Assembly (NCBI GenBank): GCA_037379345.1
Contig: CM074512.1
Coordinates: 33,604,001-33,668,000, forward strand
DNA length: 64,000 nucleotides
Direction: 5' to 3'
Source of the DNA: Perna viridis
Taxonomy: Eukaryota
Shown here: positions 1 through 59,324 of the stretch, one piece after another
Position numbering within the stretch: position 1 is the stretch's first letter
How the letters are laid out: every line of letters begins with the position of its first letter
Notes under the pieces: model-generated
What the model was told of the DNA's origin: nothing
Seen by the model: only the letters and a program-made list of their open reading frames with translations
The model's database searches: none
Position numbers and translations under genes: made by a program

Positions 1-1635
1 AGGAGTTTATCAAAATGTTGTATACTATAAGTAAAGTATATTATAGCAAAAGAAAATGAAAGTTAAAATAAAAGATTTTGAGGTAGTTAAAAACATTCAT
101 TTTTTTCCTTTAGAATAATTCTTTCCGCTATATTAAAGTCAAATTCTTAGAAAATTTGAAATTGTTCCCTTTCTAAAATCATTGTTAATGACTTGCTGAA
201 CTATCTAATGCTGTTGAAGATCAGTAATCTGTTTAATGTTAAATATATTTTGGTTCCACTCCTCAATTTCTCATTTCCATAATATTTTCTGAATACTTTA
301 TGAGTTGCTTAAAATTTATGCTCTGAAGATGTATTTTTAATTTGAGTACGGTATTAATATTAAGCTATGAGCTTTTTTTTTCATTAAAATTTCAATAAAA
401 ATTTATGATTAATAACTTTCTAATTGAGTTTTAGATTATGCTCTCATTTTGCATAATCACACTTCAATATTCATGATTATTAAAGTTCCCATATTGGTCA
501 GGAATAAAAAAAAAATGTAGAGTTGTGGTTTGCTTTCACCAATTCCTTCATACAGACTCTCTCAGGAGTAATTTTGTTCTTTTATATAATCATATTATCA
601 CCACAGTAAGGATTGCCCATTGAAAAGCGTAATAAAAGGATAATAGATATTGAAATTCTGTTGTAATTAGCTTGGTAAATAAGCATTTGTGTTAGTGGGT
701 ACAAGGTTTGGCAAGATTGTAGGTGGCTTTGGTAATGGAGGTTTCTAGAATCACAATATCCAACTGTCTGACATTTGTCATTTTGATGAAATGATATCAT
801 ATTTAGAAATAGCAGTGATTTACAAATTGCATGTTGCAATGTCGCAGTGATGTAAAACCAATATGGTTCTAAATTGTCCATTTTAGATTGTAGCCACGTC
901 ACAAATGTAAGAAGGCAGATAAAACTGTCATTTTTAGAATTTGGACACGTCACTGGTAATATAATTGAACATGTAAATCACGATTTTATTGTTTTTGATT
1001 ATTTTACATAATATGATTTTCTAATCGTATTGAGCATGATTCATAGTCTCAATTGATGATGGCAATTACTGGCTTGAATTTTATATTAGGATAGCTCTGG
1101 GTTTTACAAACACGGGATCATAATCCAATCTACTTTAACTTGTAAATCTAAGTCTTATCACTGCTTGGTTAATTAGTTTATTAAGGGAAAGTGGCATGTA
1201 TTAACATCCCTGATTTTGGTTTGGTTAGGTCAGGGTTTTTATCTTGTCATCTTGTTTGAGCCTTATATAAGGCTTTAGAATAGTCAATTTTGGTGAAAAT
1301 TATAGTCAAACACCAGTAGTCATTAAGTTAGATAGAGAAATTAAGGTTGATAATTGAAGCTTCAATAAATATTCTCATTTGGCAGAGATTAATAGTCTCT
1401 GTAATATGGAATTTTGAAAAATGAAGAAAATTGATACTCTAAAATTGAGGTACCTTCTTTAAGTGTACTGTTGTGAAGAATGTCCTCTTGAAAAAGAATA
1501 TATTATAGAAAAAATAGAGAAAAGAATTCTTATTATCCAATTTAGGGCCATCAAGAGGCATGAACATATATAACCAATTAAAAATTTGACATTAACATTA
1601 ACATCATACACATGTACATATTTAAACCATAAAAA

Positions 1636-1696
1636 ACTTTTCTTTTTTAGGTAAGTGGTGTATTTTTGTTCTTTTGTTGTTCTTGGTTTGGTAAGT
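1636..1696 (+). promoter_or_regulatory. Candidate recursive splice site (ratchet point) with 40-nt cryptic RP-exon
   Basis: cttttcttttttag|gtaagt (AG 1649-1650, GTAAGT 1651-1656), followed by a second donor ttg|gtaagt at 1691-1696. Confidence 0.55.
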
Positions 1697-11841: not shown

Positions 11842-12103
11842 CATAGATTTCAACTATCATGCCGAAGGGCATGACTAGTATCGATACTAAGAGATCCGCT
11901 ATGGCAAGAGACATCAGAAAATAATTTGTCATATTTTGTAATCGACGGTCCCATATCACAGCAAGGCACACTAATAAATTTCCGAGTGAAGTACAAAATA
12001 TCAGTGGTATTAGGGATAACATTCCCCATCGTAACTCTCTCTCTTCTCCAAAGTCAGAAGAATTTCCTACACTTTGATTTAGAACAGTAGTATTTTCTAT
12101 CAT
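11842..12103 (-). CDS. HTR2: Second 5-HT2-type receptor paralog (gene B), coding exon 1 (N-terminus, TM1, TM2); the remainder probably lies beyond the left edge
   Basis: ATG 12103 has an in-frame upstream TAG at 12142-12140. The exon encodes sequons NTT/NQS/NSS and [48 protein letters not shown]. The donor TATG|GTAGGT (GT at 11841-11840) falls after 87 codons + 1 nt, the same residue and phase as in gene A. I recognised no TM3-7 exon in 1..11841. The subtype call rests on TM1-2 only. Confidence 0.85.
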
Positions 12104-13187
12104 GATTTGTTCGCACTGTGTTTTATGTTCTCTGCATTTCTATTGCATCTCTGTATAATAAGTTTTCATTAAACTTTATTCCAATCACTTATATTTTCTC
12201 CAAAATGAATTCATCTTTTCTCATATTCCTATTGTTATACAAGTTATGAAAGTTAATCTTAGTTGTTGTACTTAGTGTTTTCTAGATCTTTGATTAATTA
12301 GTAATCATTCAAAAACCTTAAGTGGTTTATTCTTAGCTCTCATGGATATAAGTTAAAACCACAAATTCTTTCGTTTAAAACATAAGGTACAGTGCACTGA
12401 CTCAGTTTTCATTTATGTATTTAAAACATGTGTAAACTGTTTGAAGATGATAATGAAGAGCTCAGGACAACCTTCTGTGATAGCACACCAACCCACTCCC
12501 AATGTTCATCAAATCTTCACAGCTGCCAGAGCATCAATAGTCCAATCAGTGATCAGCATTCTCTGATGATTTGGATCAATAAATTGTTTATATGTGGAAT
12601 TGTTATTTAGTTTTTTAATGAACCGAATAAGATGTTAATTGATTCTCAAATGTTAGGAATTAACACAAGGTAATAGATAATTAGCGTTGGTGGAATTACC
12701 AGATTGTTCTTTCCAGAATGTCTCTGTTTAGACAAAACATCCCAATTACTGAACAAAATATGAGAAAATTATGGTGTAAATTGTTATTAATGATGTATCA
12801 AAATATAAGTATTATGATTAATGAATGTTGTTTTCTACAGTATTGGTATATTTTTCCATATTTAAGACATTTTTCCTTTTTTGTTGTAAGTAGTTTTACA
12901 CTACTGATGACCTGTATAATTAAGATACTTTTCCCAGAATGTACCAGGATGTTAGAACTTGATAAATTACAAGAGAAATGTGTTATAAATCTAGTTCTTA
13001 AATTGTAAGGGTAATCATAATATATTTCTTTTGTGATTTTGAATGTATAAGAAAAATCTTTGTATTATTGTTACTTAGGATCATACCATTCTGTGCAATT
13101 TTTGCAGTTCCATATTTGGTATAAGTAGAAACTCAATTCAGTATGCAGTATTTTTTGTCATCATTAATTATACATAAAAAAAATCCT

Positions 13188-16798: not shown

Positions 16799-18280
16799 GT
16801 GAGCCTTCATGTGAAATTCATGTTAACCATGATTCACATCCATTACATGTAAACAATATTTGCCTATGTCACTTATTGTGTAATGTTGTTAATAAAAATA
16901 GACTCCATCTTCTTTAACTCAGTTATTATTATGTTTCACCATAACCATTTCTATTTGTACTTCTGCTTGGTTTTATTGATATCTATCATGTCTTCTCAGA
17001 CTTATAAGTTGACAATCTACTGGTATGTGAGTTTACAGAAGGAACAAGTGTTTTTATTCTTTAAAATTTGCTGGATCCTTTACATATACTGGTAATGTTG
17101 TCATTCTAGTCGCCAGTCCCTGATTTCATATAAAAGAATCTACAAACTCAGATTTACCAATAATTATAGGATGATCAAAATCCATTGTTTTAGTTGTTGC
17201 TTTTGTAGACTTTACTTTCTTTCATTGGTTAAATGCAGTTTTTTTATTCAAATTTGAACAGGTATTTTTCTTGGAATTTAAATGGAAGATAAATAACTTC
17301 CTTGATTTGTGATGTTTAAATAAAACGAATATTTGATAGCATTGGCTTGTACTTGCCTCCTAACAAAATAGTTTCTAGGCCTAAAAGTGAAAAAAAAAAA
17401 AATGATGAATGTGCTTAATAAATGCGATTAATTTGGATCATGCCTGGGGAATTTTTTATTCAGTGATGGATGCATCAATGCATTATCCTTCCTCTCTAGC
17501 CCCGTGGACACCAGTATTTTTATCAAATTAATTACCACTTAAGAATTGTAACCAGTTTTATTTTTAAAGTTTTTAGTTCATTTTTCAATTGTCACTATAT
17601 CCACTGAATGGTTCTTCATCGATTTTCAATTAGGCAATGTGAATTGCCTGTTAAGACTTTTGTACTATTTGTTTAACGATTTTTTTCTGCCTACAGATTT
17701 ATGCTGTCTTAATTGGATGCTATGGCAGTCTCTTTTATCAATGTGTCATACATGTATTTTTCTTCTTTTTATTGCTTAAAAGTGCATTCTTTGCTTCGTG
17801 AAATAGTTTGCACTTTTCTCAACTCAACTTAAGAGAATATCTTTATTGATATGAAAAGTAACTTAAAAGTTCTTGTGTTTTTTCTCCTTGTAATTTTACA
17901 ATTTTGCAATGAAATAATATGTTAAAATCTTTTTTCAAACCGTGTATTTGTTTTCTGTTTTGGAAGATTTACTTCTACAAGTATTTGAAGTGGTATAATA
18001 GAACTAAGGAGTAGATGCTCACATTGTGTCTACCTAAAATTGCTACAGAACTGCTATACATATCAAACAAATCATTTTTAAATGCAAGCGTACAATGTTC
18101 TTGCTTTAGCCTTTTGGGTATGACACCTTCTTTGTAGGGTGGCAGTTTTAAAGGAGTTAATATAATTTGACTGAAAAGTTTTATTTGTGAGTTAGCTCCC
18201 TTTGTAAATAATGTTTTGTGTCATTTTTTTTATAAATGACGTTTTGATTCGGGCTATTCTCCTTTTCTGATAAGCAACTA

Positions 18281-18937
18281 TACTCGGCGTCACATAAATA
18301 ACATACTGTTAAAATTTGAATAAAAATATTTTCTACGACTTTATTGAGACCTACCGTCGTTTAAATTGTCTTAAATGACTTGCTTATTCGTTTAGCCAAA
18401 CGGCTTCTCCCTGAACAAGTCGCTTTTAGCTTAAATCATGCGTAACAAATCCTTACAGGAAAATCCCATACTAATATCCGCCATGTTGGTTTCTACGGGA
18501 CGATTTGTTTACAAACGAAGTTCGTAAGTTCCCGTCGAACTCTGGTGACAATCGTCTGTTTGATTAACTTCTCGGTATTGTACGTTGTTCGCGTAAAATA
18601 AATCCGAGATATCCGAAATGACGCCGAAATGCATTCTGGGTTCTTCGGTTTTTGGACAAACCATTTAAACGTAAACAACATCGACCATTTAAACGTAAAC
18701 AACATCTCCTAGCAACCCGATCACTGTAAACATGGCCGACTTTTTACAATGTAAATATTGGCACCGAGAATTAAAATCTGACTGGAATTTAACGATTCAA
18801 TGTTTAGGGAGAAGCCATTTGGCTAAACGAATGAGCAAGTCATTTAAGACAATTTAAACGACGGTAGGTGTCAAGAAAGTCGTAGAAAATATTTTTATTC
18901 AAATTTTAACAGTATGTTATTTATGTGAGGCCGAGTA
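18281..18937. mobile_element. Long-TIR non-autonomous DNA transposon (TA-flanked, probably Tc1/mariner-type), ~657 bp
   Basis: Near-perfect inverted arms 18279-18417 and 18801-18939 (tatactcggcgtcacataaataacatactg... / ...cagtatgttatttatgtgaggccgagtata). The core is CpG-rich and contains a duplicated accatttaaacgtaaacaacatc. The superfamily call is tentative. Confidence 0.85.
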
Positions 18938-18999
18938 TACACAGTATACATATAATAGCCGAAGTTTCAAAAGCTATTGTGATGTAATAAATTAAGTCT

Positions 19000-21360: not shown

Positions 21361-22878
21361 CTTCCTGGAGTTGGTGTGCAACAGTATTACAGACATAGTT
21401 CTCCCATTTTTAGCAAAAGTACACTTTTTCAGATCCAGATTTTACCTCTACTTTCTTGTTTATGTCTATGTTTACTTCAGATTTCATGAATTTCTGCTTT
21501 TTTTATTGGTTTCCTAGAAAAGAATATTTCACTGTTTATACATATAGAAAACCATGGGTACTATAAAGAGCTGAATGTCTGTTTACATTGAAAAAATCTT
21601 AAACAAAGACCTCTTACTTCTTATAATATGTTATTATTCAGGTGAAAGGTCAACAAATATTTTAAGTATTGTTATGAATTTCTAATACTTTCCCTTTTGT
21701 TTCTACTCCAAAGTAGTTGTCAGGATCAATGCAGGTTCTTTTGGAGGAAAACCATGTGGATAGTGAAATAGCTTTAAGTGCAGAATTCACATTTCTTGTC
21801 TAGTCCTTAGTAATTGGTATAAAATCTCCTTTCTAATGGGATGCAGTGACAGTGTAATGTCACTAAACTCACATTACTTGTCAGAGGTTGCAAGGAATAG
21901 GGTCATTTTGCGGCTAACAAGGAATCATGGGACTTAAGTGGCCTGCATTGATTATAGTAGCTTATAAAGAAGATTACAATGTTTATAATGACAGGATATT
22001 AAATAATGTATAGTCATTTGTTTGTAACAAATGGTCTGTAATTTCTATCCTCTCTGAAAATAATGCATTAGCTGGTATCATGAATTGTGCAATTTATTGA
22101 TGAAATAAATCATATTTTATTGTGGTGGGTTACATAGCAAATATTGGAAAGATTTTTGTCTTTCTTTATTGATAGTGTCATTGAGTACTAAGGTTGATTG
22201 CATGATTATATTATCTCAGTTGGTGCAAAAAGGCTTTCCTATTTAGAGGGAATGTCAACAAGTATCTTAAAATAGAAGTGGCTTGTTTCTGAAATTGCAA
22301 GAAATATTTAGTTACAGAGGAGTAGTACTATATTACAATGTAGCAAATATCATAAGCACTTGATTTTGACAGAGTGGTTTTCAGTGAACAATGTCATAGA
22401 GTATTTATCAGTAGGTAGGTAGATATCAGCAAAAACATGCCAAAGCACGAACAATGGGACAATTCAAATAAGTCAAAGTTCAAAAACATGGCCAGAACGT
22501 GAAAACAGGAAACAGAGACAGTCTACATACACAAAGTAGGTAGTTCTAATGCAACATTTGTTGGAATGTCAGGTCCTCTCAAACTTCTGAACATTGGTAT
22601 TTAGTAGGGCGTGATATGTTACTGTGCATATAACAAGAAAATTTTGATCCCTCCAATTTTGTTGGGAGTTGTGTCCCTATGAAGTAAGTTCCTTGTAATG
22701 CATTTCTGAAACAACTTAAAGTGAAACTCCTCCACAGTCAAAGGTGACCATATTGTTTTTACTTGCAAAGTTTGAAAGTACATAGAAAGCTGTCTGAACA
22801 TAAAAAAAACAACAAAATATTTCATAAACGACTTTGAAATGAAAATAGCCAGTAATATGTGATCTGTAAAGATCTGGG

Positions 22879-22948
22879 TTTTTTCATGTTTTTATTTCTT
22901 TATTTTCAGGTAAGAAAATATTTTTGATAAGACATTAGTGTGGTATGT
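22879..22948 (+). promoter_or_regulatory. Candidate recursive splice site (ratchet point) with 33-nt cryptic RP-exon
   Basis: ttttttcatgtttttatttctttattttcag|gtaaga (CAG 22907-22909, GT 22910-22911), followed by a second donor gtg|gtatgt at 22943-22948. Confidence 0.55.
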
Positions 22949-23048
22949 ACAATTATACTTGAATTAAAGTAAAATCTTAAGAAGCAAAGTTGGTATTAGT
23001 TTATGCATCTGTGTGTATGGTATAGTGATTGAATGCTATAATACTTAA

Positions 23049-23260
23049 GGAGGTAGACCTAGGGTAAGGGACACAACTCTTAAAAATCATTGGAACGTTT
23101 GTATGCAGCATTTTACATCAATCTTATTTAAGCATCTAATTAATTTGGATTCATTTTATTCTGCTTCAAATGAATGCTTGATAGCTTTTGGTGAAATTGA
23201 ATATAATACAAACATATCACTGATTCCATGAGTTATGTCCCTTACCCTAGGTCTACCTCC
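23049..23260. mobile_element. Kolobok-type MITE (212 bp, TTAA TSD)
   Basis: ~31-bp TIRs ggaggtagacctagggtaagggacacaactc / gagttatgtcccttaccctaggtctacctcc, with TTAA on both sides (23045-48, 23261-64). Purine-starting RR..YY termini fit Kolobok better than piggyBac (CC..GG). Confidence 0.8.
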
Positions 23261-23607
23261 TTAAACAAGCAACTTCAGAATTAAACATTTAATACATGAT
23301 TTTTCAAATGTTGATGGTTTTTACTGTAACTAAGGTAAATCTATAGTTATATTAGGGCTTTGTCATCTGTCCACCTTCTATAAACAGGTTGAAAATAGGG
23401 GTCAGGTGTGTGTAGTGACTAAGTTTTTTTTTTATTGTATGTAATCTGTTAATCATTTAATCAGGAAAAGACAGAAAACTTTTGTTTATATAGTCTTAAC
23501 AATACATATCAGAACATGTTTTTATTTGTATAGCTAATTGTGATTTCCTATACTGTCCCCTCTTTTTAATTAGGTAACTATGACAACAATAGAATAGGTC
23601 TATTTTA

Positions 23608-23765
23608 GGTCTCATTAACCACTTCTAACATTTCCATTATTTTGCATGTTAAAAAAAAAAACACTTTCAAAATTTCACTGTGAATTCCCTGGACAAATGA
23701 TGCATACTATAGCAAAGATTGTGAATTAAGCCTTTCAAAATCACTATACTTATGGTATGATAATG
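23608..23765. mobile_element. Truncated second copy (left end) of the Harbinger-type MITE
   Basis: ggtctcattaaccacttctaacatttccatta...actgtgaattccctggacaaatga aligns by eye with 25246-25410 and is preceded by TTA. No right TIR was seen. Confidence 0.75.
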
Positions 23766-34448: not shown

Positions 34449-34958
34449 AATCTATAGTCATTATTGTGTTCCAGGCAATATTGTATATGATATCAGTAAA
34501 TCTACAGTCATTATGGTGTTCCAGGCAATATCGTATATGATATCAGTAAATCTACAGTCTTTATTGTGTTCCAGGCAATATTGTATATGATATCAGTAAT
34601 TCAAAGTCATTATTGTGTTCCAGGCAGTATTGTAATATGATGTCAGTAAATCTAAAGTCATTATTGTGTTCCAGGCAGTATTGTAATATGATATCAGTAA
34701 ATCTACAGTCATTATTGTGTTCTAGGCAGTATTGTAATATGATATCAGTAAATCTACAGTCATTATTGTGTTCTAGGCAAAATTGTAGTATGATATCTGT
34801 AAATCTACAGTCATTATTGTGTTCTAGGCAAAATTGTAGTATGACATCTGTAAATCTACAGTCATTATTGTGTTCCAGGCAATTTTGTAATATGATATCA
34901 GTAAATCTACAGTCTTTATTGTGTTCTGGGCAATATTGTTATATGATATCAGTAAATC
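34449..34958. repeat. Minisatellite, 50/51-bp unit, ~10 copies
   Basis: Unit tctacagtcattattgtgttccaggcagtattgtaatatgatatcagtaaa. Confidence 0.95.
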
Positions 34959-37943
34959 AACTGTTCACTAGTGTGATACTAATATCTTGAAGTGTTTCTC
35001 AAGTGTTTCACTTCTTTATGACTTGTATATCATACATCCAACATATATGTAATTTATTTCACTAAGGTTTACTAGTATTCCTGCCACATTTCTCTAGTGA
35101 TTTACCAGTTTTGTTTCATGATGGTTTTTCTCTGTTTCATCATCGCTTATCATTGTTTCACTAATGTTTCACCAGTCATGTCAGCAAAGAATACTATCAA
35201 AGTTGGCACAATTTTAGATTGACCCAATACTCTTCTTCCTTCAATTATAACTTGAAACTGACTACTTTATTGAAGACATGTAGAACTATACAGCCTTCCA
35301 CCATGTTATCATTCTGACATGATATAGTCTGTGATAAACCTTATCATTCATGTTTGCTGCAGTAGGGGGTGTGTAAAACACCTCTGTACAGATGCCACAA
35401 GTATTGATCATCATGTGAAGCAGTAATGTGTGTAGCCAAACTAATTTTTATAAGAAAAAAGTAAAACTCCCCAAGAAAGAAGACCAACTTGAAAATATCA
35501 TGTATAACTCTGTATTGTCATCAAAAAGTAGTGTCAGTATAATTATTTTTTGATTTCAGATCCAAAAATACTTCAATGTACTTTGTGATCACTTTCTTTG
35601 CCATTAGTTCTGACTGGATATCAGAATACACTGTTAGTTCTCATACTTTTGAAGTCAAATTTAATTCAATATAATGCAGTCCCTGACTAAACCATACAAT
35701 TATTGACAGATCAATAACTGATCATAGAACACAACTAAACCCAAAGTTTTTATGCTGTAACTTAGTAACTTTTACCATGACTGAATCACTTAGAATACTC
35801 ATTGCTATCTTCCCAATCAGTTCTGACTAGAAACCAGTAGTGATATGACTTGATCACACTTGTTATCTTCTGTTGGATTCCTATGGTCAGTTGTTGGGTA
35901 TGCTGTCAAGAACTATCATAAAATTGATTGATGACTACAGGATGAAGCTTTTTGTATGCTTTTTGGCTGCCTGGAATTTTTGAATGTACAAATTCAAAAA
36001 TTTTGGTAAACTGCCCAGGTCAAAAACACAATTGGGCATAGGTCAAACTTTCAATGAGGATATATGACTTACAATAAATAGCAATCTCTTACTGGCCTCA
36101 GATACAAATTCTTATTTCACATTTTTTTTTTTTACATAGACTGTTTAGTAGAATTGTCACTTACAAACAGGAAGAATAAATAACAACTGCCCTAGATCCA
36201 TACTTTAGCTAATACAAGTTCAGTGGGACCGATATTTCGGACTCTACTTGGTATTGTGAATTTTAGTCGTAGTTAACTTTGAAATCCTCATACTTAAGGA
36301 AAAACTATAGATAAGTGATCTACTGTTCAAAAGATATTGTGATATGTAGTTATTGTTATGTATTACTTCTTATTGCATTTCATTGTTTATCAAGTGGCAT
36401 TACACCATCTGTTCTTGCCAATAAAACTATTATTCTTACATGCCAAACAAAACTTTTGTCAATTTAGCAACTATCAATATCTCAGGTGTGCTCTGTTCAT
36501 TACTTACAGGTATACATAAACAACAGGTGCAATGTATTTTACACCTGGGGCATGTACAACTTGATTATGTATTATGTAACTTAAAAGCTGTTTTCTGAAT
36601 TTATCAATTTAAATTTAAATGCAATAAAATGTATCAAATGACTCCTCCTATTCAATAACTAATCCTGTTCTTTGCATTAAGGGATTTTTCAAACTTAACA
36701 TGAAAATAATCATATGACCCTCATCCTGACCTCAATCATAACTACATGATAAATTGACAGGTGCTGTACTATTAAACTGCAGGATTATTGTAGAAAAAGA
36801 TGTGCATTTTGAAGTTAATAGACTGTTAGTCTGCTTAACACTGTGTGGTAACATTCTTTAATCTGCCCAAATGCACTGACTACTATTATAAAAAGTTAGT
36901 TAGAAACATTCGTGTGATGAAGAATGGCTTTGATCTTGGTCAGTAAATGATGTTTTGTGGTTTTTGTTGTGCTTTGCAGTAAGGAGGCAGATGTATATCT
37001 GTTGAACACTAGAAGAACCAAATACATTGCTCATCATTGTCCCTGATTATCTTTATTGTGCATATGATAAAATCTGATAAAAAAGACCCATACTGATCTG
37101 TGATTTATGTGTTTTGTTTGTATTGAAAAACTGAGACTTGATATTTTAGTATGCACATTATAATGACTCAGTTCTTGTCTTTTTTATATTGCTCCACATG
37201 GCAGTGACTCAGTTCTTGCGTTTTTGATATTGCTGCACATGGCATTGACTCAATTCAGTCATTCTGATGGTGCCCTATGTCTTATCTTTTTCTTGAAAGC
37301 ATTGACTTCCTGCGTGAAATTACTTCCTGAATTAAGATTGGATTAACTTTCCTTTCTTTGAAAGGCTATTTATACCCTGCTTTTGATTTTTTACATTCAA
37401 ACATGTTTCTAACTAGGCTATGCAATAGTCATGATGGCGTCATTGGAAAATTTTCAGTTTTTGAAAAGCAGGTTATTACTTCTTTTCATTCATAAGCATC
37501 AAGAGCATTTTTATAACAGTTTTATTTGCTTCATAGAACAGGACATGTGGGAATTTCTGCATTGTGCAAGTTCAAATGATTGTAAACTCTTTTATCTGAA
37601 AAAATTGGCATGCATTTCATCACACCTTTCCTAGAAGAATGACGTACATAAAAACTTTCAAATTGTATCAAATTTAACATCATTACATGAAAAGTATCAT
37701 GATCATTTGTTGTGGCGCAGTCAAACATGATTGGCAATATTGACGTAGATACGTTACAATTTTCACATTCCTGTAATGGTAGCAATTGGGATTAAACTGC
37801 CTGTTAATTGTATACTTTAATGTACAATATTGGAAATCCATTCTAAAGACAATTTAAGTCAGCAGTAATCAATCTCTCCTTCAGTTAGGTTTGACATTCC
37901 AACAAGTGGAAATTAGACCATCCAAGAAGATTTATATGTCTTG

Positions 37944-39076
37944 TCAGCATGGGGTCTCCAAACTCACAGTACTAGAACTGGTGGGATAATGGCTCATCCC
38001 ATTGGTCAGAATCCAACGCTGCACTCGTGTCTTACGTTGGAGTGTATCATAGCGACAGAGAATTAGCTTTTTAAAGGTCATTTTGAATGTTTTATTGAAC
38101 ATTGTATAAATGATTGGGTTTATGGTGCTAGAGAGGTACCCTAGCCACACAAATGTTGTAATTAATGTTGGGCTGAAAAAGCAATCCTCGCACAAAGCTG
38201 ATGTAATATTCATAATAAAAAATGGAGCCCAGCAGACAACAAATATTATAAACACTATTCCTATAACTTTAGAAGCTTTCTGTTCTGTGTGAACATCGTC
38301 AGTTTTGATACTTGCAGCTTTAAGCTCAGCTTGGTGCTTTTTGATAAGTCTTGATAATGCTGAAGGACTAGATGGGTTTGATTGTGGCTTTTTTGCCCAT
38401 TTTGTGTTTAAAGACTCCTGTGAGTGATAAACAGAAGAAATACTTTCACTTTCTGGTGATATATCTGGGCTAAGATATGTATTCTTTTGTATTGGAAATG
38501 TTAGACTCGCTCGTAACCTAGGTTTCTTGTTGATCATCGGTGAATATGGATCAGTAACCTCTGCTTGTTCTATTATAGTTCCGTTCGGAGTTGTCAGTTT
38601 TGATTGAAATTTTATATATGGACGGCGGCGGATGGGTTTACGACTCAATGATCTCCGGATCATTGGTCGACCACTGTTTCTAGCTCTTTGACATTTAGTC
38701 GACTGCCGTATGAGTAAATATAGTGTCAAACTATAGGACAAAATCATAATAAGTAACGGAATGAAAAATGCACAGATAGAGCCATAGATCCTAAAATGTT
38801 TATTACTTAGCACACAGTAATTACCGCTAAGAATATTAGCCTCGTCAATAAATCCAAGAATTGTAATTGGACTAGAAATGGTCACTGATATCACCCAAAC
38901 CATCACAATTTTTAGTATCACAACAGTTTTTGATTTGTTCCTATTTGAAAGTGGCGCCTTTATTGCCATAAAGCGTTCCAGAGATATGGTACATAGATGA
39001 AGTATGGAAGATGTACACATGAAGACATCAGCTGTCACAAAGAAGTCACAAAGCACTGGTCCAAATAACCATTTAC
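37944..39076 (-). CDS. HTR2: 5-HT2-type serotonin receptor gene A, coding exon 2 (ECL1 to C-terminus, TM3-TM7)
   Basis: The acceptor ttctatatttgcag| (AG at 39078-39077) joins in phase 1 to give ...NEFT-G-KWLFGPVLCDFF. Motifs: TM3 DVFMCTSSILHLCTISLERF (D3.32), TM5 GSICAFFIPL, TEQKASKVIGIVF, CWAPFFIMN, and FVWLGYLSSTINPIIYTMFNKTF. These closely match human 5-HT2A motifs such as NEQKACKVLGIVF and [22 protein letters not shown]. The joined CDS is 331+1133=1464 nt = 487 aa + stop. Confidence 0.95.
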
Positions 39077-41376
39077 CTGCAAATATAGAAGTAATTGTAT
39101 ATTGCTACATTAAAAGGCTGACAAAAGGAAGGCATGTTAAAATAGTAGGTTTATAGCCATAACTCAACTTACATGTTTGCTAAGGGTTGAGAATTGACAA
39201 ATGCTATGGATACAGTTGCTTAACTTCATACTTTAATTTAATTTTCTGTCCTTTTTTGCCTTTAAGATAATCTTGATAATAATGAATTTTTTAGACAACT
39301 AATGAAAAAAACATTTTTGCTCCAAATTATACTCTTTTACTCTATGCATGCTCTTTAAGATCATTGAACCACAGGAACTAAGTACTTTGGGGGAAAGCTG
39401 ATAGTATCACCTTAGTTGATATTTCCCCCTTTATTGAATGGAAGAGGAGGGTGGAACATGTAATACAGTATTGGTCACTTTGAATTAATCTAAAAACTAA
39501 TATTATTATTATTGTTATTTTGTAATACTTTTGTCTCAGTGGTATTTTTTCCAGAGTGAAATCATATTATGGCTATTTAATGTGAAAATTACTTGATTGC
39601 TCTTTTAGACATGATGCAATCGAGACCAAAATGCCTTCATAAAAAAAGATCAAGAGTTTTAACATCAGTAAAGCAATGAAGAAGGTGCTTCATCAAGATG
39701 ACTCTTACAATTGCTTTGTTTTTCTACAGCGTAATGTCATCAACTAAATGTCAGAAGACTAAGACCCAATTAACCATGGAAAATAATCTGCCATTTTACT
39801 TTTTTGTCAACAAGACATTTACGTGTCCATAACCATTCAAAGTCAAAGATTGCATTGCAAACTTCCTATATTGAAGAAAAATGGGCAACTTATATTGTAA
39901 TAGAAAAATTCATCGATTGTCAACAGATTATTTTTCCTCTCATGTCAACCATTAGAATAGAACATTGACTTTATAAAGATTGTGTACTTCAGTATTCACG
40001 GCAGTTTAAAAACAGATTTTTCATCTTGTCATATGCAGACTCTAAGCTTGGAATACATTGACAGAGGCTTTTGAATATTTTTTTCAACATGCTTTTATGA
40101 TGCATGGGATTTGAATATTTAATCTTTCAGTTTTTCTTTCCATATCCTACTTTGGTTAGATAATTTAAGGTCAGAGTGCTTACATAATAACTTTTACATA
40201 ATATTTTCCTGTTTTGTGTGATTACCAATTTTCTTATTGAATGATCATGGATTTTGTTTCAAATCCAATTTGAGATTGTTTATATTGGAAAGAATCATGC
40301 AGTTTTGTTATTATAAACCTTTCTAACTCCAAAAATAATTTAAGTGCAGTCTCTTTGAAAAACAAAAAAAAAGGAATAAATTTGTATCAGTATCTTAAAC
40401 AAGATATAATTTTCAAGAATTAAAAAAAAAAGGAAAAGGGTTCTTAGTTTTCCAATTACAAGCACTCGTAGAAGTCAATCATGGAAAATTACAGATAGAA
40501 AAGAAAGAACCCTGAATGATTTACAAATTTTGTTGATATAATTTGACAACCAGTTTCTGATAGATTTGATAATTACTCAGTTCTAATAATTGCTATTTTA
40601 TGCAAATAATCCTGACTTAGCAGAAACCTCTAATGTTTGGCAAATAATTATGTCAATAATCACTTTCTTATCATTTTAAACACAATCAGCTGTTTGATAG
40701 TGAGGTGATGGTTCTCTGTGAAGTCTGATGCTCAGCACAGAGCTGTCTTTTTGTATTGGCTGTGTTAAAATGCTCAAAATGGCTTTGAGTCATATCTTTT
40801 TCATGTACAGACATGACAATAAGTTCTAAGGGTTAAAGAATATACAAAGCTTTAGTTTTATCTATCAGCTGTTGCACAGAATGCCTCTATTCTTCAAAAA
40901 AGAGGAATTGCACAACACCATTCTTCAGAGAGGTCTTGCACATCACAAGGAGATCTTTTTGCATTTTTGTGTTTGTATAATACTATGTAAGTAACATAGT
41001 AACATCTTTGTGCTTGAGTTCACAGAAACCACTGTCTTACATTTGTGGAATTCTTTTATTTTCTTCTTTTTTGTGTTGTTAAAAGCTCTCTGATAAAACA
41101 ATACATCAATAGCATTTAACACTTTTAAATGTAAGGGCTCTTAATTTATTTGATTTTTTGCATACATAACACATAAATGTTCCTCTCTTGTGTTTTATTC
41201 TCTGTATTTGATCAACGGTAGTTTTCATCAACCCTTAAATACTTTATTTGAGAACCAATTGACTGTGTTAATTGATGTTTCTAATTACCCAATTTACAAG
41301 AAAATTTGACTTTGACAACTTCAAAGCATGGTTCAGCACATTAAGGTTTAAATTTGAGGTATTGATACACATTTAA

Positions 41377-41589
41377 GGATGTAGACATAGGGGAAGGGGC
41401 ACAACTCCTACAAATCATTAGAATGTTTTATATTCAGCATTTTACATCAATCTCATGTAAGCATCAAAGTAACTTGGATTGATTTCAGTCTGTTTCAAAT
41501 GAAATCTTGATAGGCTTTGGTGAAATTTAATATGATACAAACATATCACTGATATCAAGGGTTATGTCCCTTACCATAAGTCTACCTCC
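41377..41589. mobile_element. Second, more diverged copy of the Kolobok-type MITE
   Basis: ggatgtagacataggggaaggggcacaactc...gggttatgtcccttaccataagtctacctcc. The interior matches 23049-23260 (e.g. tttggtgaaatt, caaacatatcactgat). Flanks are TTAA / TAAA. Confidence 0.8.
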
Positions 41590-44500
41590 TAAAAGATGTG
41601 CTTTCGATTTTGTATGAAAAATCTAACTGCTTTGATTCCCTTTTTGGATGAAAACTATTTTTGTATGAGGAAGTACTGACAGAGACTAAATTGAAAATTC
41701 TTCAGTGAATTAATGTAACTACTACTGCTGTTGAATAATAAGTGTTTGTGCTTCATTTTTTTATGGTTTTCATGGTTAGATCTAAACACAATTATAATTA
41801 TACAAAGAAATGTTATGTTTCCATGGAGAACTATGAACTGATAAAACTTTGAGACTCCATAAAAAATATACCCAGGAATGAAAGTCCTTCACAGTATTTA
41901 AAATTCATTACTTAAACTATTTTTTACAGTGCATTTCAAATTAACATGGAAAGATGCAAAGTATTTTTTTTTTCTTCTTTACACTATAATTAGTCATGTT
42001 TCATAGAAATAAATAGTTCTATAGAGGAAGTTACAGTCATTGCATTTTCCTCTGCACAATGTTAGTGACATATAATAAAGTTACATTTCTCCAGAATTTC
42101 CTAAGGTTTTGATTCACCAGAATGCATTTCAAGCTCAGAAGTACTTAGTGTTTTTTTTAATTCTTTGGTAACTTTTTCTTTCATTTACATGACATTGATG
42201 AAAAACAATAATTATAGAAATGGTACATTTGAATGCCTTTGAACAATATGAAAATTCGCATTTGAAAAACTTTGCTTTTAAGGATAAAGATATAATGTTT
42301 TTAAGCTGAATTTTAATATCAATAAAACAAAATGTATTGAAGATTCATTTATTCTCCTCAGATCCATTTATAAAATGAAATATTGATGTGTTTAATAGAT
42401 ATACTCATTGGTGATGCTTCAAAATCAATTACAATCGAAGAAATGCCAGATTTTCCATGTTTTATGAAAACCTTGCTTATTTTTTGTCTGACTGGCTTGC
42501 TATGGACTGTGGAAAAGCAGCTATGCTGTTTACTGAAATAACAGATAAATAGCTAGCTTTACATCACTTTATTAGCTGTATAAATAAGTTGGGTTTAATT
42601 AGCGTAACATTTCTATTGGTATTGATTGGGGTAAAATTTACGGACCCTTCTTGGCAATAAAGTGTATAGATTTTAAATAAAAACACTTCTGTAATTAGAG
42701 AGATAAGTTGACCAATAAAAAAACACAAATTCTTTGAGAATAAAATCTAATTTGATGTTTTAGAACTGATGACAAGAATACAAAGCATACAAATCACAAG
42801 TTAGATAGACTTGAATACTAATTTAAAAGACAAGATCATTTACAGTTGGTATTCAGATGATAAAGCTATTCATTGAGGATATTGAACTCAGAATTCCCTG
42901 TCATCAATGAATGGTTCCTTTCTAATAACTTTTTACTGAATTCAACATCAGCAAGTTAGTTATTTCAATCTTTTTTGTGCAAATCTATTCTTTTAAATCA
43001 GAAGGTGGAACTGTTATTTGCTTGTCTGTTAACAGATATATGAGAGTCTACTACTGTCTGTCAGTCTTTGAACCTCTTTCCATTCACTCCTTGTATATTA
43101 TATGTTGTAATATTTAAGATTTTGTTGGGGTTTTTTTTGGGGGGGTTACAGTATTTGTCATGGGAGGAAACATTCTTTTGTTTTCTTTTTATTCTTTTTT
43201 TCTATTAAGATGATTGAACATTAAAACACCAAAAAGCGAGTACACAGTCATTAGCACAGCTGTTTCTTTTCATTTCTATTGCTAATGCTTCACCAGTTGT
43301 TTGAATGCAAATAAAAATGGAAAAGGAGAATTTTGCTCCATGTCTCAAAATCTTTAATTATTTCATCTTTGAAATATTGAGAGGTGGATATAATGAAATG
43401 ATTAGTTCTTAACTAAACTTTCTGCACTTAAATATTTACCATTATCATATCTAAGGTCATAAAAATGTGCAGATTTTAATTCATTTTCAATAAGTATAAA
43501 TATTTTATCCATAGACAAATATTTTGTGATTGCCATCATGCTTCAATGAAGATATGAAAAATATACCCCCTTGTAAGGCCATGGTTAAAAGACATAGGTT
43601 TCACCCATGCAATTCAAAGATCATTTTGATGCTTTGAATTTTAATATTCTATTGATTAAGATGTAATAAAAGTTTATGTGGTTGAAATTTGTCATGACAG
43701 TCTGAATAATAATGTCAGTAATTTCCATTTGTAAATTAAGGCAGGACCTCCTAGAGGGAACAGGTTTTTTTAAATAAAATAATAGGTAATTGTGATAGAA
43801 ATGTCTTCATCTTTTTTTATCATTAGTTATTTTTTTTAGAAATTTAAATGAAGTCATTTCATGGAATAGATCTAAATATATAGGACTGCATATTTAGTCT
43901 TTTTCTGACATTCTACTGAAAATAACCCCAAAAATTCTAAATCATGGCCTTAGCATCCAAATATTTTGCCTTGAATTTATGATGAACCATTTCTAATGGG
44001 TTTTCCAGATACTAAAAAATGATATCTGGTATGGTATAGTTAATTGAGAAACCATCTATTGTGTGATCTTCCTGTTATCATTCACCAAATTAATTGACCC
44101 TTAGATGAATTTTTAGTGAACCCTTGGACACATGCCTTATATGATCTCTAAGGAGGATTCTGATCATTTGTGTTATTGATCAGTTAGGGTCAGCTGTAGT
44201 CCCATTCAAACCATTTTTACTGAATGAAAAATAGATCACCCACATAGAAGGCTAAGCCTTTAGAATAGGAAAAAACTGTCAGATATATTATGTACAGAGT
44301 TCAATGTAGCAATTGACCAGTCATATGTAATATTGGTTGCTGGAAAAAGTAAATTATTTCTATAGCTGTAAAACAGAGATGCAAAGAAAATGTCCATGGG
44401 AGCAACAGGTGGACAGACATATCAAGCTATGCTTAAATGCTCTGTTTATTATGTTAAATTAAGCTTATTGACTTTCTTCAGCCAAATGCCATCTGAATAC

Positions 44501-53021: not shown

Positions 53022-53490
53022 AGTCATGTGGTAAGATGTGGCTGAGTACTGTTGTGTGTGATAGACAGTCATGGTGTGCTGTGGCTGCATGAGTATTGCT
53101 GTGTGTGATGGACATTCATGGTGTGATGTGGCTGCATGAGTATTGTTGTGTGTGATGGACAGTCATGGTGTGATGTGGCTGCATGAGTATTGTTGTGTGT
53201 GATGGACAGTCATGGTGTGATGTGGCTGCATGAGTATTGTTGTGTGTGATGGACAGTCATGGTGTGATGTGGCTGAGTACTGTTGTGTGTGATGGACAGT
53301 CATGGTGTGATGTGGCTGAGTACTGTTGTGTGTGATGGACAGTCATGGTGTGATGTGGCTGAGTACTGTTGTGTGTGATGGACAGTCATGGTGTGATGTG
53401 GCTGAGTACTGTTGTGTGTGATGGACAGTCATGGAGTGATGTGGCTGCATGGTTGTGTGTGACAGACAGACCTGGTGTGATATGGCAGAG
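53022..53490. repeat. TG-rich minisatellite, 43/47-bp units, ~10 copies
   Basis: gtcatggtgtgatgtggctg(catg)agta(c/t)tgttgtgtgtgatggaca. Confidence 0.95.
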
Positions 53491-53764
53491 TACTGTAGTA
53501 TACAGTAGACAGTCATTAGGTAATGCCAATGAATTCTGTAGTATGTGACATGGTGTCATGGAGTAACATGGCTGTAGTAATATGTGACAGAGTCTTGGAG
53601 TTTGTCATGAATTTGTCATTTGTAGTATCTAGACCTAGTTAAAGATATGAGAGTTATTGGTCATTAAATAACCTCTTATATTATTGTCTTACCAAGGATG
53701 TACATTTGTATCAACCAAAAATAGCTCTTTCTTTAAAAAATTTGTGATTTAAAAGAATTTCAAA

Positions 53765-56071: not shown

Positions 56072-56402
56072 CTGTAAATTCATTTATGATGCTAAGAGGC
56101 ATCACAATGACACTAAGCAAAAGATCAGTCACGGCTAGCGAAAGTAAAAAATAGTTGGTCACCGTTTGGAGACGTTTTTCCATGGATATTGCCATGCATA
56201 CTAAAATATTTCCAGCTATCCCAAATATTATAAGTGGTGATAGAAATAAAATCACCCAATTATACTCTGGCTCCAATGCTGTTGAAGAATTTGTCATATT
56301 TTTTAATATTGTGGTTTCATTCAGTAGTATATCCCATTGAACATAATTCAATATTTCTGAAACATTTTCTTCACTAAAATTTTTCTGATCCATTAAAGTC
56401 AT
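56072..56402 (-). CDS. HTR2: 5-HT2-type serotonin receptor gene A, coding exon 1 (N-terminus, TM1, TM2)
   Basis: The ORF from ATG 56402 encodes N-glycosylation sequons (NFS, NVS, NET, NMT, NSS), TM1 with GN (IFGIAGNILVCMAI) and the 5-HT2-like EKRLQTVTNYFLLSLAVTDLLLSVIVMP. The exon ends at a consensus donor, ACAG|GTAAGA (GT at 56071-56070), after 110 codons + 1 nt (phase 1). Confidence 0.93.
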
Positions 56403-56707
56403 AATTCAGCTTCTAAAACTGTTGCAACTCTTTGTAATTCCTTTTGCGTAACTTTTTCAAACTTTTGCAGTTCCTTGACCAACTTGAAACAACCAATTCC
56501 AAAAGTGATAATATATTCCATTTTTGTACTGACGTGTTTGAGTCTGTTTATTTTATCGTGTAAATCATTGTAAAGAATTCATCAGAAAATAACTCTTAAT
56601 ATCATAATTACATCATTTACCTAAGGTAAAAACTATAGTCATTTGTCATTAGTTGCTATCGGTATTTTTACCTGGCTCAGCAGCCATAACATCCCAAAAT
56701 TGATTTT

Positions 56708-58334: not shown

Positions 58335-58775
58335 CCCATTCTCCCTAATTTTGAAATTATCATTCTCCCTAATAATGAAATGACTGTTCTCCCTAATAGT
58401 GAAATGCCCATTCTACTTAATAGTGAATTGTCCATTCTCTCTAATTTTGAAATGATCATTCTCCCTAGTAGTGAAATGACTATTCTCCCTTATTTTGAAA
58501 GGACCATTCTCCCTAATAGTGAAATGACCATCCTCATCAATAGTGAAATGACCATTTCACTATAGTGAAATGGCCATTCTCCTAATTTTGAAATGACCCT
58601 TCTCCCTAATAGTGAAATGACCATTCTCCTTATTTTGAAATGACCATCCTCCCTAAAAGTGAAATGACTGTTCTCCCTAATAGTGAAATGACCATTCTCC
58701 CTAATTGTGAAATGACCATCCTCATTAATAGTGAATTGACCTTTTTCCTTAATAGTAAAATGACCATCCTCCCTA
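58335..58775. repeat. Minisatellite, 24-bp unit, ~18 copies
   Basis: Unit ccattctccctaat(ag/tt)tgaaatga. Confidence 0.95.
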
Positions 58776-59324
58776 TACACCATGTAGTGAAGTGGCAGGT
58801 AATGGTATTTAATATACCAGTACCTACTGTATACATCTGTAGACCTATTAAAATCAGTATTTAGTAAACAGTTACCATGAAAGGCCCAAAGAAAGATAAC
58901 TTTTTCCAAAGTAGCAAACCTGAGATTTTTGATTTACTGGAATTGGTAAAAATCTGCCAGACCATTAATTAATGAAAGTTCTGAAACAACACCATACATT
59001 CACTTTTCTTGGAGGGGCAAATTCCTAGTGCAAATGAGATTCTGACAAATATACTTTCTTAACACTTAAGATAAGAACTACTAAATATACCTTGTGTGCA
59101 AGCCTCTAAATGTACATGGAAAAAATAGTATTTAGTAATTTTTCCATGAATAGCATCTTTCCCCATTTTTTAAGGATAGAAATAAAGGTAAAGTTATTGC
59201 TTTGTTTTGTTTTCAGTACTTAATATTTGCATATGATTTGCATTAATATGTAATTATACGCCACATAATGTTGCAGATCTTCACCATGTTTACTGCCATA
59301 GTGTCATAGGTCTAGCTTCGTATG

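Follow-up and report, generated by a model that had tools for sequence, protein, structure and literature searches.

A candidate recursive-splicing ratchet point with a 33-nt cryptic exon in a 99-kb PSMD1 intron of the mussel Perna viridis that holds two antisense receptor genes

The window analysed here is a stretch of 64,000 nt of Perna viridis DNA, which was examined with 200 kb of flank on either side; positions upstream of the window are given as negative numbers. The whole window lies within one phase 2 intron of PSMD1/Rpn2 on the + strand, which runs from -26206 to 72856 and is 99,063 nt long. Human PSMD1 residues 607–628 are matched by the exon ending at -26207, residues 534–608 by the exon preceding it, and residues 625–667 by the frame that includes the exon beginning at 72857. 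In RNA, 39 raw X21 reads join the donor at -26207 to 72857 onward (agreement 1.0), and X1, X2 and X13 contigs also join these two exons. The window therefore lies within a real intron, and the + strand host intron that the original prediction supposed does exist, with both of its ends supported by RNA. The RNA examined comprised four of 24 runs over 21600–23038 and six of 24 overall with the host junction, with X18–X20 outside this set, and the host junction ends listed are those with at least three reads. The + strand is T- and G-skewed over a domain of about -60 to +90 kb.

Two GPCR genes of 5-HT2-like type, receptors A and B, lie antisense within the PSMD1 intron. Coding exon 1 of receptor A is at 11842..12139 on the - strand (its upper bound is that of a stop-to-stop frame) and exon 2 begins beyond the window, at -1800; among named homologues the nearest is that of Mytilus galloprovincialis (77%). 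Receptor B has coding exon 2 at 37944..39076 on the - strand, with its best PDB matches to 5-HT2C/2A, and an open frame at 56072..56405 on the same strand as coding exon 1, again with a stop-to-stop upper bound. It is very divergent, having the longest branch in the tree, and could be a paralogue that evolves rapidly or belong to another aminergic subtype. The nesting of both receptors in one PSMD1 intron spans -62000 to 85828 (C2, about 33.54–33.69 Mb).

The window also contains several repeats. Tandem repeats at 34550–34990, 58490–58933 and 53363–53545 give spurious long open frames. A CpG-rich non-autonomous transposon-like element at 18279–18939 has 139-nt terminal inverted repeats and is 92% identical to a copy on C5; as a CpG-rich patch at 18.3–18.9 kb it had been considered as the promoter of receptor A, and was rejected as a repeated element with 139-nt inverted ends. 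A MITE-like element of about 220 nt with inverted ends has two copies in the window (23041–23265 and 41373–41594) and more in the flank.

The presence of a 5-HT2-type receptor inside PSMD1 resembles the human PSMD1/HTR2B locus, from which the mussel differs in having two receptor genes. In human we take the host intron to be intron 16, at the same codon (628), with HTR2B antisense to the host. The CpG cg06096336 is annotated both to the body of PSMD1 and to the first exon of HTR2B, which places human HTR2B within PSMD1 (PMC6642153, PMC7579899). A literature search, with most subscription papers outside its reach, found no paper on PSMD1/5-HT2 nesting in molluscs.

The candidate site lies at 22909/22910 and reads as described in the original prediction. 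The acceptor half (22872..22909, + strand) has an AG-free zone of 36 nt 5' of 22909, a 28-nt U-rich tract at 22879–22906 of which 22 positions are T, and CAG at 22907–22909, the AG being at 22908–22909. It has 17 pyrimidines in 20 positions, compared with 16 for the true terminal acceptor of the intron, is among the top 11 by pyrimidine count of the 1,168 YAG candidates in the intron, and is the only one of those 11 that is followed by GT. The predicted donor half, GTAAGA, occupies 22910..22915 (+) and would form CAG/GTAAGA once joined to the upstream PSMD1 exon. A second, weaker predicted donor, GTG/GTATGT at 22942/22943 (22940..22948, +), would start an intron at 22943 and bounds a 33-nt segment at 22910..22942. 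The tandem acceptor and donor, the short segment and the weaker second donor that make up the anatomy of a ratchet point are thus all present. By a simple match count against the U1 consensus, rather than MaxEnt, the two donors score 8/9 and 6/9; a donor as strong as the second of these is found 25–60 nt downstream of 6.2% of the AGs in the intron. The stretch 22780–23000 has a single match in the genome, in a search that skips very common words.

All three frames of the 33-nt segment contain stops, and in the frame of PSMD1 it reads Arg and then at once TAA. Mature PSMD1 mRNA skips it in the 39 X21 reads and the X1, X2 and X13 contigs, which are a shallow sample. Since all frames are closed and no host junction shows the segment, it can be only a skipped or a poison exon, and we describe it as a putative cryptic RS-exon that is a poison exon if included.

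The PSMD1 intron contains 5,170 AGs on its sense strand, four of which are followed by GTAAG. Three of these four are acceptor-like, defined as YAG with at least 13 pyrimidines in 20 positions and an AG-free zone of at least 15 nt: the sites at -5970, 1650 and 22909. The expected number is 0.27 (hypergeometric p=0.0012), where the thresholds were chosen post hoc and the window had been picked for 1650 and 22909, so that -5970 is the independent site. On the antisense strand of the same intron neither of two AG/GTAAG sites is acceptor-like, and eleven control pentamers have 0–1 sense matches each. In flanking DNA there are four such sites in 1,129,402 strand-nt, which gives 0.35 expected per intron and P(≥3)=0.0055; including two regions selected by the pattern raises the expectation to 0.52 (P=0.016). 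Look-alike sites do occur in flanking DNA and genes, for example at 209633, just 5' of an ordinary-looking acceptor.

The site at 1650 (1630..1696, +) has TAG/GTAAGT at 1650/1651, a 40-nt predicted cryptic exon and a downstream donor TTG/GTAAGT at 1690/1691; its upstream and downstream donors score 9 and 7 in the simple consensus match count. The third candidate, CAG/GTAAGC at -5970 (L002:4030, +), lies outside the window and has a 54-nt AG-free zone, with no good downstream donor within 120 nt. The tract at 22909 is the richest in pyrimidines of the three. The distance from 1650 to 22909 is 21,259 nt, and splitting the intron at all three sites would give pieces of 20.2, 7.6, 21.3 and 49.9 kb. 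The pieces of about 20 kb that had been predicted with the 1650 site are matched by those of 20.2 and 21.3 kb and not by those of 7.6 and 49.9 kb, the third site lying outside the window. A sense-strand scan of the final 49.9 kb found no strict acceptor-like AG/GTAAG site. Weaker + strand acceptors followed by GT are seen in that segment of about 50 kb at 23573 (GTAACT), 36509 (GTATAC) and 56820 (GTAAAC).

Exon 2 of receptor A, used as a query, returned eight loci. In a quick tree, which leaves out L125 and L129 as too short, L122 groups with mytilids, L123 and L124 group with clams (Ruditapes, Mya, Dreissena), and L126–L128 lie near annelid sequences. Of the loci in the bivalve clades, just two extend 2.9 kb or more upstream of the exon, L122 (10 kb) and L123 (3.3 kb); L124, L125, L128 and L129 have too little upstream sequence for a comparison with 1650. 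Both loci that are long enough contain exactly one acceptor-like AG/GTAAG on the strand opposite to the receptor, at L122:6485 and L123:405 (- strand), and the chance of one such site in the lengths searched is 0.027–0.067 and 0.009–0.023, respectively. These counterparts are assigned by their position relative to receptor exon 2, from which they are 3,523 nt and 2,914 nt away, the distance for the 1650 site being 3,450 nt. Downstream donors lie at 33 or 37 nt in L122 (6/9) and at 53 nt in L123 (7/9). An alignment of five sites has AG/GTAAG as its only invariant block, together with scattered single columns, and BLAST finds no intronic similarity of L122 or L123 to the mussel locus. Of the annelid-like loci, neither L126, with 5.3 kb of upstream sequence, nor L127, with 2.9 kb, has the site. 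No PSMD1 exon is found in any returned locus, therefore their host is inferred from receptor identity and, for L122 and L123, also from matching skew. From these comparisons the 1650 site appears to be conserved in position in another mussel and a clam-like locus.

Conservation above that of the surrounding intron, by which the original prediction was to be judged, thus holds for the sister site at 1650 (2/2 loci); the region of 22909 was not recovered in any relative. No counterpart of -5970 is present in about 3.4 kb of the clam-like L124. A BLAST match of 22878–22915 to the L123 site (E=0.005) was discarded as motif similarity only, an unrelated locus matching better. It had also been proposed that the site could persist owing to its location between the two receptor genes. 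This argument is unnecessary, because the conserved sister site lies within the intron of receptor A itself.

Genome-wide, T6YAG/GTAAG occurs 80 times, compared with 63 for a GTAAC control, which is no clear excess. There is likewise no clear excess when the motif is combined with a donor word at 24–52 nt (36 matches, compared with 24 for the GTAAC control and 44 with the donor at 70–98 nt), and among 30 fetched matches of each kind downstream donor words number 8 and 6, with the local skew alike. True splice sites and repeats confound these tests, which would also miss a small class of sites; the counts argue against a large class of such sites of the size seen in flies. Two of the 36 genome matches to the composite pattern fall on the sense strand of the PSMD1 intron with 21 kb between them, and chance same-strand pairs are estimated at about 0.02 genome-wide for this pattern, which was designed post hoc. 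Same-strand pairs on C5 and C14 were considered and set aside, as they do not resemble giant skewed introns.

Reads or contigs joining the exon at -26207 to 22910, and loose read ends at the site, were absent from four runs, but 22560–22941 has no coverage at all in them and the depth over unique intron is near zero, with none in the raw-read run, which makes this a weak test. Data of poly(A) type have limited power for recursive intermediates (PMC6110457). Among the RNA runs listed none contains the sequence of the site, and small shares of words probably come from the repeats at 23041–23265 and 23604–23764. RNA pieces at 22481–22539 were rejected as partial matches to other transcripts. A single X1 contig, which may come from either strand, is 133 nt long at depth 4.9 and free of mismatches, and stops at 22942, the base just ahead of the predicted donor at 22943; from its length the other end is about 30 nt into the neighbouring repeat. 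The edge at 22942 could be the 5' end of an intron or a random fragment end.

We consider it probable, from the arrangement of the motifs and the comparisons above, that 22909 is a recursive-splicing ratchet point of Drosophila type with a skipped poison exon in the PSMD1 intron. The best support for this reading is indirect, as the recurrence in position is that of the sister site at 1650 and not of 22909. Starting from the observed host gene, intron ends and length, motif, closed frames and skipping in mRNA, we infer the following splicing steps. The upstream PSMD1 exon would be spliced stepwise to -5970, to 1650 and then to the AG at 22909. As in the fly model (PMC8605326), the weak 22943 donor would let the 33-nt piece be defined as an exon. 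Joining the exon to 22909 would recreate CAG/GTAAGA (8/9), and we propose that the 33-nt piece is dropped because this donor is stronger than, and would outcompete, that at 22943 (6/9). From the recreated donor the remainder of the intron would then be spliced out. In the rare transcripts that included the 33 nt, a stop would directly follow Arg628 (human numbering), with decay the likely outcome. The donor hierarchies at 22909 (8 and 6) and at 1650 (9 and 7) fit such competition.

The leading alternative, which we regard as unlikely, is that the motif at 22909 arose by chance, AGGTAAG falling at the end of a U-rich stretch in a T-skewed and AT-rich intron without ever being used; this could hold even if the 1650 site is real. 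Between 0.27 and 0.52 such sites are expected per 99 kb, there is no enrichment genome-wide, and no RNA supports 22909, at near-zero coverage. Against this, the tract at 22909 is the richest of the three and its layout of paired donors is that of the conserved sister, and chance has also to account for two of 36 composite matches in the genome falling 21 kb apart in the same intron and on the same strand.

It is distinctly improbable that 22910–22942 is a regulated poison cassette exon, partly included in PSMD1 transcripts and leading to nonsense-mediated decay. The immediate stop in the host frame is what such an exon would need, and the X1 contig edge agrees with use of the 22943 donor. This donor is however weaker than the recreated one, and the segment is not in the 39 junction reads, though decay would hide it. 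The length (40, 33–37 and 53 nt) and sequence of the sister exons vary and their initial GTAAG is kept, which fits a relay.

Less credible again is that the site starts an alternative terminal exon, or serves to splice a non-coding + strand transcript that is not annotated; we hold this to be very improbable. AG/G TAA gives a clean stop after Arg628, and RNA-like intronic contigs exist in X1 and X17. The G at +5, which is dispensable for the stop codon, is however kept in all five sites compared, and the upstream donor has only its canonical partner among the ends listed (at least three reads). Scarcely any weight falls on a minus-strand signal in the tract, for instance one for polyadenylation of receptor B transcripts (AATAAA): TTTATT is indeed present on the + strand in the tracts of 22909 and -5970, but it occurs at 2.2 per kb across the intron and the conserved 1650 site lacks it, and such a signal would require a 3' UTR of 15 kb and leave GTAAG unexplained. 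The included coding micro-exon that the original prediction allowed for, on the ground that 33 is a multiple of 3, is refuted by the three-frame stops, the TAA in the host frame and its absence from the 39 reads and three contigs, and we give it almost no credence.

The mechanism preferred here, a ratchet point with a skipped cryptic exon, is already known. Drosophila ratchet points with cryptic RS-exons include those of Ubx, kuz and Bx, and more than 500 are reported in the fly (PMC8605326). The mussel candidate resembles them in its tandem acceptor and donor, its long intron and the presence of several sites per intron. The predicted exon is, like Drosophila RS-exons, short and stop-containing, has a weaker downstream donor and is not seen in mRNA, and at the sister site 1650 the motif is kept while the exon content is not, as in the fly. 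It differs in its host, a housekeeping proteasome gene of a mollusc, whereas in the fly developmental genes are over-represented among the hosts (PMC6110457). It differs also in that no large genome-wide class comparable to the more than 500 fly sites (PMC8605326) is detectable here, and in that the junction search over four runs found no intermediate.

In mammals, nine definitive fully suppressed RS sites have been reported in long introns (PMC8605326, citing Sibley 2015). The mussel candidate is like these in being apparently rare in its genome and in its predicted poison RS-exon and donor competition. The mammalian sites are mostly in neural or developmental genes (PMC13149111), unlike PSMD1 with its antisense receptors. 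The species for which a 2026 review lists recursive splicing are Drosophila, mouse and human (PMC13149111). A literature search, with most subscription papers and the supplementary tables of RS sites outside its reach, found no report of recursive splicing in molluscs, bivalves or lophotrochozoans. The mussel case contributes a host intron verified by RNA, in a housekeeping gene, and the apparent conservation in position of a sister site.

A more speculative and, in our view, doubtful extension is that the site is one step of an ancient relay, kept since the divergence of mussels and clams, by which PSMD1, an essential gene, can carry its antisense receptors in a single giant intron, that the 33-nt poison exon is occasionally used and ties the output of a proteasome subunit to the nested locus, and that this may extend to PSMD1/HTR2B in vertebrates.

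If the ratchet point is real, recursive splicing would extend to a housekeeping gene that has other genes nested in it. Such a case in a mollusc, where the gene is identified and highly expressed, is simple to test. Together with a sister site that seems to be retained on both sides of the mussel-clam split, it would help to settle whether bilaterians inherited recursive splicing from their common ancestor or evolved it repeatedly.
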